Shown here in pieces: positions 5,901-11,900 of a stretch of DNA of 64,000 nt (positions within the stretch are counted from its first letter, which is position 1; every line of letters starts with the position of its first letter). A program made the position numbers. Source of the DNA: Escherichia coli. GTDB taxonomy: Bacteria; Pseudomonadota; Gammaproteobacteria; Enterobacterales; Enterobacteriaceae. The stretch is from NCBI RefSeq assembly GCF_002854065.1, contig NZ_CP024150.1; one strand, 5' to 3'.

Positions 5901-8900
5901 CCAGTCAATGGAGCATTCAGAGACGAACTGCGACGGAATGCCTTCCCAGTCCTGGAACATAAACTCGGCATCCCATTCATCGGCATGCAGTGCCTGACAG
6001 GCCTCGTAAAAATCCTCCCTGCCGTCAAACTCCGTCAGATCAAACCATTTGCCGAAAATGCTGCCGCAGTTGTATTTGTGATATGTACCCACGTAAACAG
6101 CCGGTGTGGTGGTCGTAGTGCTCATAAAAAATCCTCCATAGTCGATGTCGTCTGAGTTACGGCTTACGCCGTGCCGACACGACAGCCGGGCGAAAAGCGG
6201 AGGATGCAAGGGCGTCACCGAAGCCGCAGCGCAGTAAAAAAGCAGGAGCAGGCTGGACGGTTTGACGGCGAAAACTGAGCCGGAAAACGACGGGAAGACG
6301 GCGGATAACGTATGAAATAAACTGCGACCGGGTGAAGGTGACGGCGTTTACGCTTCCCTTGCATCAGCCGCGGCCCGGCTAAAGTAGCGGCACGGCGGCC
6401 GCACGATGGCAGGAACCTCAAATACGGCCTATGTTCAGAACTGAGGTGAACCCTGATTACAGATCCACAGCGGAGAAACACAATGTGCGGTCGGTTTACG
6501 CAGTACAACTCCCGCGAGGAGTACCTGGCCTTTCTCGGAGAAGAAGCAGAACGGGACATCCCCTATGATCCGGAGCCTGTCGGCCGCTACAACGTTGCGC
6601 CCGGAACCCGGGTATTGCTGCTGAGTGAACGCCGCTCGCAGCTGCATCTTGATCCTGTTCACTGGGGTTATGCCCCGGAGTGGTGGAACAAGACCGCTCT
6701 CATCAACGCCCGAAGTGAAACTGCGGCCGGCAGCCGGATGTTCAGGCCGCTCCAGGAGCACGGACGGGCCATTGTTTTTGCCGACGGCTGGTTCGAGTGG
6801 AAACAGCAAAACGGCGTGAAACAGCCGTTTTTCATTTACCGTAAGGACGGAAATCCACTCCTGCTCGCTGCCATCGGGAAACCACCTTTTGAGAACGGCA
6901 ATGACCTGGAAGGGTTCCTGATCGTCACGGCAACTGCGGATGAGGGACTGCTGGACATTCACGATCGGCGACCGCTCGTGTACTCACCGGCTGCCGCACG
7001 TAAATGGCTCAGCGAAAACACAACCGGTAAAGAGGCGGAAGACATTACCCGTGAGGGCAGTCTTTCCGCCGAAGATTTCACATGGCACCCCGTCAGCCGG
7101 GCTGTTGGCAATCCGAAAAATCAGGGGCCGGAACTCACAGAGCCACTGGCTTAGCAGACGATGAGATACCCGGTATCCACTCACAGGGTTATGCACCGTT
7201 TCTGTGGATAACCCTGAGCCTGTTTTATCCGCCAGAACAATGACCTGGCAGGAGCCGGTAAAATTCTCCTTGCAGGACGGAAAATATCTTAAATAATACT
7301 GTATATAAAAACAGGTATTTTTAGAGGTATGCCATGATCCTTTTTGTCTCTCCCGCACCAGAGCCAGCACTGTTCACCGCTCCGCTTTTCACTGAGCGCT
7401 GTCCGGCAGGTTTTCCGTCACCTGCCGCGGACTATACCGAAGACGAACTGGATCTGAATGCCTATTGTATCCGTCGCCCCAGCGCGACCTATTTCGTCCG
7501 GGCCATTGGTGATTCGATGAAAGACATGGGCCTGCACTCCGGCGATTTAATGGTTGTCGACAAAGCCGAAAAACCCATGCAGGGGGATATTGTCATCGAG
7601 GAAACAGATGGCGAGTTCACCGTTAAACGCCTGCAGCTTAAACCCCGAATCGCCCTGCTGCCGATGAATCCCGCCTACCCTACCCTCTATCCGGAAGAAC
7701 TACAGATATTCGGCGTGGTGACGGCATTCATACACAAGACGCGGGGTATGGACTGATGTTTGCTTTGGCTGACGTCAACAGCTTCTACGCCAGTTGTGAG
7801 AAAGTATTTCGTCCCGATTTGCGTAATAAGTCCGTTGTGGTGCTCAGTAACAACGATGGCTGCGTCATCGCGCGCAGTGCTGAAGCGAAACGGCTGGGAA
7901 TTAAAATGGGCGTCCCCTGGTTCCAGCTGAAGACGGCACAATTCCCGGAGCCGGTCATCACGTTCTCGAGCAATTACGAACTCTATGCGTCTATGTCAAA
8001 CAGGGTAATGTCTCATCTCGAGGAACTGGCGCCACGCGTGGAGCAGTACAGTATTGACGAGATGTTTCTGGATATCCGCGGAATAGACCGCTGCATCGAT
8101 TATGAGGACTTCGGACGGCAGCTACGTGAGCACGTTCGTTCCGGTACGGGGCTAACCATCGGCGTTGGAATGGGCCCCACGAAAACGCTGGCTAAAAGCG
8201 CGCAGTGGGCGTCAAAGGAGTGGAAGCAATTTAAGGGGGTTCTGGCGTTGTCGCCGGAGAATCCACGCCGCACGGCAAAATTACTCAGCCTGCAACCGGT
8301 CGAGGAGATTTGGGGGGTGGGAAACCGAATAGCGAAGAAGCTGAAGGTCATGGGGATCACTACCGCCCTGCAGCTATCACTGACAAACCCCACGTTTATC
8401 CGTAAGAACTTTAATGTTGTTCTTGAACGGACTGTACGGGAGCTTAATGGAGAGAGCTGCATTTCGCTTGAAGAAGCCCCCCCACCAAAACAGCAGATTG
8501 TCTGTAGTCGCAGCTTCGGACAGCGGATCACCACCTATGAAGAAATGCGCCAGGCAGTCTGCCAGTATGCCGAACGTGCGGCAGAAAAATTGCGTGGTGA
8601 ACGCCAGTACTGCCGGCACATCTCGACTTTCATCAAGTCCTCACCTTTTGCAGTTAATGAACAGTACTACGGAAACGTGGCCACTGAGAAGTTGATCACA
8701 CCTACCCGTGACACCCGAGATATCATCGCGGCGGCGGTCAGATCTCTTGACAAGATCTGGCTCGATGGCCACCGTTACGCCAAAGCGGGGATAATGCTTA
8801 ACGATTTTACTCCGAGCGGCGTTGCGCAGCTGAATCTTTTCGATGAAGTACAGCCGCGACCGCACAGCGATGAGCTGATGAAGGTCGTGGACGGTATTAA

Positions 8901-11900
8901 CCATTCGGGCAAGGGGAAAATATGGTTCGCCGGACGGGGGATTGCCCCCGAGTGGCAGATGAAAAGGGAACTACTTTCGCCAGCTTATACGACTCGCTGG
9001 GCAGATATTCCTGCAGCGAAATTGACTTGAAATTGTGGCGATTTCACCTTGAAATTCTCAACAGAAATAGCTTAATTACAATAAGTTAGATGTGAAATCG
9101 CCGTGGCGAAGTTATTGACTCAAATTTCTATCAAGGACCTCGTTGATAGCTTTGTCCAGTTCATCCTGAACCACTTTTGACATACGGCTAAACTCATAAG
9201 TCAGCGTACGCCCTTTCACACGCTTGCGCGCGAACTTGTCCTTTTCATCAAAGGTCCAGAGTGCGGAAATTACTGACTTTTCCTTAGGAGGCGGAGCTAT
9301 CAATGCCTGAGAGGCCTGAGAAATCAATTTCAGTATACTGGCTTTCTGTTCGTCTTCTGGTCGCTCGTAGTCACTCAAAATTGCATTATGCTGATCTGAG
9401 ACAGATTGAATGAGCCCTTCAGACGTTAAGCCCTTTTCACTGAGTTTTTCATTAACCTCTAACAGAATTTTATAGTCACTAAACGACAGCTCAGACTGAA
9501 CCGGGAACAGAGAAATCAATTCTTGCGGTACTGCTGCCGCCTGCAGTGCCCTGGTGACCTTAGCCTGGGATAACCCCTCCAGTTCAGCAATTTCCTTTTG
9601 ATTGAATCCAGACTCTTTCAGAGCTATCAATCTTAAGCCGATCTCCCGAAGGTTATGCTCTTTAGCTGTCTGGATATCTTTAGCCAGATGGCGAGCTTCA
9701 TCAGCTGATAAAAGTTCAGCGGTAACCATTACATCAAGGCCTGTACGGATATAAATCGCAGAGGCTCGCCGTCTTGAACCATCCAGTATCTCAATCCTTT
9801 CACCTTGCTGAATGCCAATACAGGGGAAGAACTGCTGAAACTTAATAGTCTGGATAATAGATTTCAGAGACTCCCTGGTCAGAGCAAGTTGATCTCTTCC
9901 GTTGGTTTCCTGGTTTACGAATGTCTTACTTTCAACGTCCGATGCAGGTACCCGAACAAACCTGAAGGTTACCTTCCTGCCGGTTTTTAGGGTAAATACC
10001 TGACTTCTTTGGGTGTCAGTCATCTCGACCATTGACGCCTGGGTATTTAACTGTCTGCCAATGGTTTTTCTTTTCTCATTCGACATCACATACCTCCGTT
10101 AGTACGAATGAACTCAATGCGATCAAATACGGCCTTCGCAAAGTCTTCCGCTGCTGATTTTGCGCTTTTAAGCGCCTCGGTGCTTCCATCATAAGTTGCT
10201 GGATTTGCGGAAATAACTGTGTCAAAAGTCTCCCCGCAGCGCTCGAAGCCATCCAGCCTCGGCAGAACCATGTCGAGCATATCGGCACCGAATACCTCTT
10301 TGGCCTGACTATGGCAAATTTTGTGATCAGACTTGTTCAGGATTTTGGACATAAAACCGACGTTTCCGATGAGATTGCAGGTGTGTCCATCCTGTTCGAT
10401 CGAATCAATAAGCGCAGGAAGGCTGGCTACAAACTTCAGGGAAGAATGAAAATCAACCGTTGCCGGTGGAAGAGGGGTCAACATCAGGTCTGCCGCTCCG
10501 ATGCAGTTTTTCAGGAACGCATCGAGGTGAGGACCACTATCAAGGAAGATAAAGTCGTAGTCATACCGGAGCTTGTCGATAATGTTCTCTTTAAGCACTG
10601 CATGAATATTTTGCCCTGGCAGATGTTCCTCACACAATCCCTTCCAGCCTTCAGCAAGGAATGCATCATCAATTGAAGCGGGAATAACATCAACACCCGG
10701 GATAATTGACGGCACGATGAAATCGGACAGTAATTCTTCACGAGACACGTTCTGGAGCATGGCCTGAGCTGCCGTATTTTCAACCAGGCCCACTGAATTC
10801 TCATGGCTCAGGAACATTGTCAGAGATGCCTGCGGATCGAAATCGATGGCCAGAATACGCAGGTCTTCGAACAGAAGCTGAGGATGAGCCCGAAAAGCAT
10901 GGGATAATGAAGCGGTAGAAACTGTCTTGGAACCGCCACCTTTAAGGTTACATACAAAAATAGTGAAGGCTTTATCGAAGCGATCTCTGTACTTGGGTAC
11001 TTTACGATGGAAATACAGATCGATGACGTTCTGAATCGTCATCGCGTACTTCATCGTATTGCCGGAAGGTTTCTTTTTAAAAATGTAGCCACTGGCTTCC
11101 ATTTCGGCCACAGCATACTCAACACTCCCTTTGCTGAGCTTAGGCAGCTTATACAGGGCGGCTTTGCTGTATTCCTGATAGAACTCGGTAAGCTTCAATT
11201 CCTCTTTTTGCTGGCGGATACTTTCGCTCAAGGATGTCAGAAGTTTACCTGCACGTATGGCGACTTTCCGTAACTGCTCAATATTTTCCATTCTTCACCT
11301 CATGACATTTTTTGTCATTTTGAATAAAAAGAATCATGTTGCAAGAAATAATTCATAATATTTTGATTTTGTTCTCACAGAAGGCACCGAAGATTAAATG
11401 GAGAAGAGGGCACTACGTCCACAATCATTTTTTTGACCCACAGCGCAAACCGTGAGTCTGTTCAGAGCTTGCATCTGAGCAGGCGAGGGTTGGACAAGCC
11501 CGACGGGTGCGTCAGCCTGATACATTAAGGTATGTCCCTATGGGATGACCGAAATAGACCGGTCTGACTGAAGACGATCTGGCGCAGATCCGTCACTAAT
11601 CCCTCTATCCTGGCACTCCCTGTCTGGCCATCTGCGAATACTGGTGGGGCAGGGAGGCTCCAAACTCAAGCTCTGCCTGCCACAGCGATTAAACAGCTTC
11701 ATTACCCCCGCGAATTTTCCCGTCAGATGCGCAGTCAGGGGATTTATCTGTCGGCCGCTGTCGTCAAAAGCGACATCGAGGTTGGTCCATGAGAGATAAA
11801 TATCATTGACGCCCGCACTGAGCGCCACGGCATTCCGGCCGGATCATTCCCGATCGCTCAACAAACGGTAGTTGATCTTACCCAGCAATAGTGGACACGC

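Follow-up and report, generated by a model that had tools for sequence, protein, structure and literature searches.

The SRAP family of abasic-site cross-linking proteins was named for its genomic neighbourhood with UmuCD (Aravind, Anand and Iyer 2013, PMC3765255), and Samuel et al. (2024, PMC11541004) describe umuCD as the boundary at which anti-defence islands of leading regions terminate, and call the role of umuDC on plasmids unclear. That work has 0 occurrences of the term SRAP, a minor omission that amounts to no discovery; neither umuDC nor SRAP is mentioned in a paper on transcriptomes of early conjugation, and yedK appears under 'SOS system' in a Klebsiella transcriptome under chlorhexidine through its annotation alone. 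Here we analyze a locus in which a YedK-type SRAP gene is followed by umuD and umuC, located in a stretch of 64,000 nt (the window) from an Escherichia coli plasmid (contig NZ_CP024150.1, assembly GCF_002854065.1). The arrangement is real, already known and common, and it has been described in kind. We consider it likely that the locus is a known segment of plasmid backbone at the distal edge of a conjugative leading region, holding two rightward transcription units and one leftward. With the same good confidence, the sequence suggests that these are a leftward unit formed by a long hairpin and the antirestriction gene ardA, a SRAP gene without recognisable SOS control, and a LexA-controlled, translationally coupled umuDC.

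Three intact open reading frames (ORFs) with their catalytic residues in place follow one another on the + strand, at 6483-7154 (223 aa), 7334-7756 (140 aa) and 7756-9030 (424 aa). The product of the first matches the Pfam SRAP model PF02586 over residues 1-211 of 223 (E-value 5e-51; 173.7 bits against a cut-off of 27.1) and passes the YedK-type NCBIfam model PRK09951 (382 bits against a cut-off of 349). It aligns to E. coli YedK structures over 222 residues without gaps, with 69% identity and a best E-value of 9e-108 (about 1e-107), and its fold was taken as settled by a solved structure at this level of identity. The gap-free alignment retains all four active-site residues in YedK numbering: Cys2 in the MCGRF start, Asn75 in LINARS, Glu105 in WFEWK and His160 in DIHDRR, the roles of Cys2 and the other residues being those set out in PMC9436759. 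Three of these residues, Cys2, Glu105 and His160, are the ones whose absence had been named beforehand as grounds for abandoning the assignment. The start codon lies 7 nt downstream of a GGAG motif. The initial annotation had placed a YedK-type SRAP gene directly before umuD, and the ORF at 6483-7154, its family matches and the YedK alignment bear this out. In length, in the four active-site residues and in passing the YedK-type model the protein resembles E. coli YedK (PDB 2ICU, 6KCQ and 6NUA). It differs in being encoded on a plasmid, next to umuDC. On the E. coli K-12 chromosome, to our knowledge, yedK and umuDC are not linked.

Given its similarity to YedK, the protein would be expected to lose Met1 and to link the exposed N-terminal Cys2 covalently, as a thiazolidine, to abasic sites of single-stranded DNA (ssDNA). 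Capping of such sites would prevent strand breaks and limit mutagenic bypass, as has been described for SRAP shielding through the Cys2 thiazolidine link (PMC9436759 and works cited there). Compared with the homologous cluster of Enterobacter plasmid pDSMZ16690, the SRAP gene has a ratio of nonsynonymous to synonymous substitution rates (dN/dS) of 0.20 and is, by this measure, under purifying selection, which is stronger in umuD (dN/dS about 0.06) and umuC (about 0.05).

The second ORF encodes a UmuD homologue, with a Pfam Peptidase_S24 domain (E-value 3e-25) and a score of 144 bits against the NCBIfam model NF007621 (cut-off 110). Alignment to E. coli UmuD (8gmt_B, E-value 1e-38) places residues A25-G26 on the C24-G25 cleavage site. 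The catalytic dyad is also in register, S61 (in GDSM) falling on S60 and K98 (in FTVKRL) on K97 of the E. coli protein. We take the Ala-Gly pair in the UmuD arm to be a cleavage site of the LexA/MucA type. The third ORF encodes a Y-family polymerase with the Pfam domains IMS, IMS_C and DUF4113; it is identified as UmuC by NF002955 (809 bits; cut-off 431), and the DinB models of NCBIfam remain under their own cut-offs. Residues D6, D101 and E102, visible in its translation, are presumably the catalytic carboxylates. The stop codon of umuD and the start codon of umuC share one base (TGATG), so that translation of the two genes is probably coupled.

Upstream of umuD lies the strongest LexA operator candidate of the window. 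We scored the sequence with a 20-bp position weight matrix (PWM) compiled from 31 E. coli operators, whose own scores span 11.8-26.1 bits (median 19.4). The best match in the 64 kb is TACTGTATATAAAAACAGGT at 7297-7316, with 22.4 bits under window base frequencies and 23.4 under a uniform background, a score above the training median and above everything found in 50 shuffles of the window (best 19.3 bits, mean of maxima 13.2). The site contains CTGTATATAAAAACAG exactly at 7299-7314, the canonical SOS box that the initial annotation had assigned to the umuD promoter, and that assignment is confirmed both by the rank of the site in the window and by its conservation. The putative sigma-70 promoter of umuDC, at 7270-7297 on the + strand, consists of TTGCAG (7270-7275), a 16-nt spacer and AATAAT (7292-7297), which together form the best relaxed hexamer match 5' of umuD (8/12). 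In five relatives the two hexamers are invariant, the ribosome-binding site (RBS) is conserved and the CTGT/ACAG half-sites are kept, over a distance at which umuC differs by up to about 22%, which is good support from comparison. The LexA box before umuD scores 20-23 bits in both copies carried by the plasmid of the window, in pDSMZ16690, in Salmonella pSPCV and in a related Citrobacter plasmid, and 15 bits in Salmonella pRSE30.

Because the near-consensus operator abuts the putative -10 hexamer and covers the expected start site, LexA should repress umuDC, and we infer that the operon is under LexA control. Bound LexA would keep umuDC off until its RecA-stimulated cleavage; RecA* would then promote self-cleavage of UmuD at Ala25-Gly26 by the Ser61/Lys98 dyad, and the resulting UmuD'2C, a homologue of DNA polymerase V (Pol V), would replicate across abasic sites and UV lesions, with mutations as the price.

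Other LexA-like sequences were noted on the plasmid. The second-best hit of the window, TACTGTTTTGTTGTACAGGA at 36578-36597 (16.6 bits), lies within the 5' end of a pilN-like lipoprotein ORF (34966-36636, - strand); since it falls inside that ORF and scores below the best shuffle, it was rejected as an operator and is probably a chance match. About 125 bp upstream of dqlB, a DinQ-like type I toxin gene (21759-21854, - strand), there is a weak LexA-like sequence, ACCTGTTTGTTCAGCCAGGA at 21981-22000 (13 bits). The dinQ gene of E. coli is SOS-regulated, and dqlB could be a second SOS-controlled locus of the window. The same plasmid also has, about 14 kb before the window start (L001, 231-690), another copy of umuD whose LexA box is identical, TACTGTATATAAAAACAGGT. 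This copy adjoins an inositol-catabolism operon, and no umuC follows it in the PLSDB table, which omits pseudogenes.

The 179 bp that separate SRAP from umuD hold the putative promoter and the operator of umuD itself, and no counterpart to that operator was found 5' of SRAP. Scanning 6100-6483 with the PWM yielded a best score of -0.8 bits, compared with 11.8 for the weakest training site, in agreement with the earlier remark that no LexA box precedes the gene. The same matrix identified no operator before SRAP in pDSMZ16690, nor near the SRAP gene that another plasmid (L007) carries in an unrelated context. On this evidence from the sequence, SRAP is outside the LexA-controlled unit. Since the only operator lies downstream of the gene and none precedes it, its expression is most probably independent of SOS, and transcription would probably be weak and constitutive, from a promoter in 6398-6482 or inside the hairpin that precedes it. 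Under such a scheme the abasic-site shield would always be present and the bypass enzyme only during SOS, and it is plausible that the two would act on the same substrate in sequence.

The locus is shared with many plasmids. An E. coli plasmid, p2017.06.05CC_1 (NZ_AP027791.1, IncFIA/IncFII), matches the window with 100% identity and has all three genes annotated, and the SRAP-umuD junction was found in 525 plasmid records. Matches to the whole junction query come mostly from Salmonella, Klebsiella, Citrobacter, Enterobacter and Escherichia. Among 5,426 complete E. coli genomes the SRAP block is present on plasmids of 42 and, at megablast sensitivity, on no chromosome. On the right, the cluster is bounded by the partition genes parB-parA (9112-11291, - strand; Pfam ParB for the former and HTH_54/AAA_31 for ParA), which are convergent with umuC and keep the same order beside it in pDSMZ16690, pSPCV and pRSE30, with or without SRAP.

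The most informative relatives are samAB-type plasmids, the closest described umuDC systems being samAB of pSLT/pSPCV, with plasmid mucAB and impCAB also named. With samAB the window shares the promoter hexamers, the RBS, a conserved block further upstream, the one-base overlap between the two genes, the adjacent parBA and the LexA half-sites; umuC is about 78% identical to its samAB-type counterpart in nucleotide sequence and 87% in protein sequence. The difference lies upstream. pSPCV and the Citrobacter plasmid have in common with the window the stretch that runs from position ~7177 up to the start of umuD, as well as parBA further downstream. Their upstream neighbours differ, neither has a SRAP gene, and homology begins about 25 bp after the SRAP stop codon. 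As judged from these alignments, the umuD control region (about 7177-7333) is self-contained. Given that samAB-type relatives keep the promoter, the LexA box and parBA in the absence of SRAP, the SRAP gene is an optional add-on.

An optional gene might have no functional tie to umuDC at all, and SRAP could have been picked up as a passenger at an island boundary prone to recombination. Its absence from samAB-type plasmids would fit this, as would its occurrence in L007 in an unrelated context without umuDC. The pattern of divergence from pDSMZ16690 (8642-11189) points in the same direction: nucleotide identity is 93.6% for SRAP, 90.5% for umuD and 78% for umuC, with synonymous divergence (dS) of 0.18, 0.40 and 1.68, respectively, a mosaic that suggests recombination within the cluster with a breakpoint near the umuD/umuC boundary. 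In the non-mobilisable Salmonella plasmid pRSE30 (2534-3806 of L006), furthermore, SRAP has acquired an internal stop codon. In that plasmid, however, umuD carries a one-base gap that shifts its frame and the LexA box has dropped to 15 bits, so that by its sequence the cluster is decaying as a whole and not in SRAP alone. The passenger explanation must also contend with the maintenance of the junction in the 525 records across five genera, with purifying selection on SRAP and with the recurrence of the SRAP-UmuCD neighbourhood across bacterial phyla (PMC3765255). We regard it as unlikely, and favor SRAP as an optional accessory outside LexA control.

A further element shared with the samAB-type plasmids is the conserved block at 7180-7216, upstream of the umuD promoter. 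It holds an inverted repeat (7184-7196/7204-7216), a perfect DnaA-box 9-mer, TGTGGATAA at 7203-7211, and a second match of 8/9, TTATGCACC, in the opposite orientation; on its own the 9-mer has no statistical significance, with 2 occurrences in the window against 0.83 expected. Located about 90-125 bp 5' of the inferred umuD start site, the 35-bp block is invariant in five relatives, including the samAB-type plasmids without SRAP, and the sequence right after it varies among them. The predicted hairpin register differs between the two types, which argues that the block is conserved as sequence and not as structure. The hairpin at 7184-7216 was examined as a terminator for SRAP and rejected as the principal reading: it is conserved where SRAP is missing, folds in another register there and has no proper U-tract.

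On the left, the cluster abuts ardA (5619-6125, - strand; Pfam ArdA, E-value 1e-34), annotated as a RefSeq coding sequence at 20020-20526 of L001. The true start codon is the ATG at 6125, preceded by a GGAGG motif, in agreement with the RefSeq annotation. Most of the 357-bp gap between ardA and SRAP, about 240 nt, is taken up by a long imperfect hairpin on the + strand (6160-6400), with inverted arms at 6167-6191/6373-6397, 6197-6212/6356-6371 and 6208-6219/6337-6348. Folded as DNA it reaches -65.4 kcal/mol (z -4.3), a stability equalled in 0 of 200 shuffles. The right arm bears the hexamers TTGCAT (6359-6364) and TAAAGT (6380-6385), the latter in a partly mismatched stretch. Two copies of the element are present in pDSMZ16690 (83% and 75% identity), upstream of a methylase gene in one case and flanked by ardA and a DUF1380 gene in the other, and F carries one copy before an antirestriction gene (67% identity, E-value 2e-12), which is an uncharacterised element. 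An Rfam scan of 5400-9400 returned sub-threshold chance hits only.

The hairpin shares several traits with the Frpo/ssi ssDNA promoters of F and ColIb-P9: a long imperfect fold, -35 and -10 hexamers, a position about 40 nt upstream of a leading gene and repetition within leading regions. It resembles the untested candidates Frpo*1 (E-value 7e-14), Frpo'4 and Frpo*3 of Samuel et al. 2024, with E-values from 7e-14 to 1e-4. It has no significant similarity to the ssiD, Frpo1 or Frpo2 regions of F; homology to these characterised elements was accordingly rejected, and for this reason we designate the hairpin as of candidate ssDNA-promoter type and do not place it in the Frpo/ssi family.

The orientation of the locus follows from comparison with pDSMZ16690, where the leading genes psiB, ssb, ardA and methylase are all on the minus strand; for that reason we take the + strand to be the transferred strand. 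Folded as ssDNA, it would direct transcription leftward from the hairpin, starting 40-50 nt before ardA and not toward SRAP. The hairpin would thus belong to the leading-region unit, of which ardA, the gene that it faces, is the last member in a truncated form of that region. On the opposite strand from ardA, SRAP and umuDC should not be transcribable from the transferred strand, and would act in established plasmid-bearing cells and not in the first minutes after transfer. This orientation agrees with the report that 90.3% of the umuCD homologues in leading regions lack an orientation suited to transcription from the transferred strand (PMC11541004). As in the islands described there, umuDC stands at the distal end of an ardA/methylase/ssb/psiB island, is oriented against transcription from that strand and has a candidate ssDNA-promoter hairpin at the island edge; the difference in the window is that IS30 and an inositol operon have reduced the island to ardA and three small genes.

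The initial annotation correctly noted ardA close by, and grouped it with SRAP and umuDC in one module for damage tolerance and establishment. The grouping is not supported: ardA is divergent behind a leading-region hairpin, SRAP and umuDC are on the other strand, and SRAP is outside the LexA unit. To speak of a single module is loose, the sequence being better described as three units of differing logic with SRAP as an optional accessory beyond LexA control.

The remainder of the leading region left of ardA (2977-5192) consists of two small hypothetical genes and a homologue of the DNA polymerase III theta subunit (4938-5192, - strand). At its left end stands an IS30 copy (2977-4128), followed by the inositol-utilisation block, and in contrast to the relatives ssb, psiB and the transfer origin oriT are not adjacent. 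The single hairpin of the window (6126-6482) resembles a recombinant of the two pDSMZ16690 copies (6485-6945 and 8265-8660 of that sequence): it matches the ardA-proximal copy at its left end, where the RBS of ardA is included, and the SRAP-proximal one over the remainder, and the methylase/hypothetical/DUF1380 block of about 1.8 kb that lies between them is missing. As far as the alignment goes, this arrangement fits a deletion by recombination between repeats, a risk pointed out for Frpo1 and Frpo2 by Couturier et al.

The hairpin might also be read in two directions. As a fold in ssDNA it would drive ardA; in double-stranded DNA (dsDNA), TTGCAT and TAAAGT would be read rightward as a promoter for SRAP, and conversion of the incoming strand to duplex would switch expression from anti-restriction to abasic-site shielding. 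In duplex form the hexamers do aim at SRAP, about 100 bp before its ATG, and the scans gave no other promoter candidate for the gene. Hairpin, SRAP and umuD promoter also move as one block, the homology of E. coli relatives beginning at 6164, the left edge of the hairpin, and the hairpin, linker and SRAP travel together in pDSMZ16690 likewise. Adjacency at an island boundary would, however, explain this joint travel equally well, and the proposal is one read from sequence. In the duplex the spacer is just 15 nt, TAAAGT is a poor -10 hexamer, and Frpo promoters have been reported to be inactivated on conversion to dsDNA (PMC9849209). Both the two-way promoter and the switch that it would bring about appear improbable to us, and a hairpin serving the leftward unit remains the preferred interpretation.

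The arrangement in the window does not differ substantially from the SRAP-UmuC-UmuD neighbourhood of PMC3765255, in a relation here of adjacency and not of a demonstrated operon. That SRAP, umuD and umuC form one SOS-regulated operon, through a missed atypical LexA site or a distal promoter, is suggested by their common strand, by the short distance between SRAP and umuD without a canonical terminator, and by the family name and neighbourhood analysis that tie SRAP to SOS operons (PMC3765255), but the reading is very improbable, given that the sole operator lies downstream of SRAP and governs only starts at or after about 7270, that the matrix does not rise above its negative best score upstream of the gene, that the umuD promoter and operator stand alone in relatives lacking SRAP, and that the space 5' of SRAP is filled by the hairpin of the opposite unit. 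Slimmer still is the chance that a strand-state switch at the hairpin lets SRAP set the abasic damage passed on to LexA-gated Pol V, as a brake on the plasmid's own mutagenic polymerase.

Several points weigh against the three-unit interpretation that we prefer. The PWM depends on E. coli operators as known from the literature. The strict sigma-70 scan of 5500-9300 did not call the umuD promoter, which is a relaxed match only, and consensus scans yielded no promoter for SRAP, the best relaxed match (8/12) having poor hexamers. Within 5500-9300 no canonical terminator was found between SRAP and umuD, and only a weak U-tract follows the 7184-7216 hairpin, so read-through into umuDC is possible; the sole terminator-like site of that interval lies in umuD and looks like chance, fewer sites having been found than expected. 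Cooperation of SRAP with Pol V is our inference and is based, for bacteria, on gene neighbourhood only. With no oriT nearby and a leading region truncated by IS30 and the inositol-catabolism block, finally, the hairpin and ardA may be relics.

The locus offers a worked example of how the designation 'SOS response-associated' is a label of neighbourhood and not evidence for regulation. In a widespread plasmid block, SRAP lies outside the LexA unit and can be lost without touching umuDC. This poses the question of why an abasic-site shield is retained beside an error-prone polymerase, at the leading-region edge, on many plasmids of IncF/IncR type from Klebsiella, Enterobacter, Citrobacter and Salmonella.

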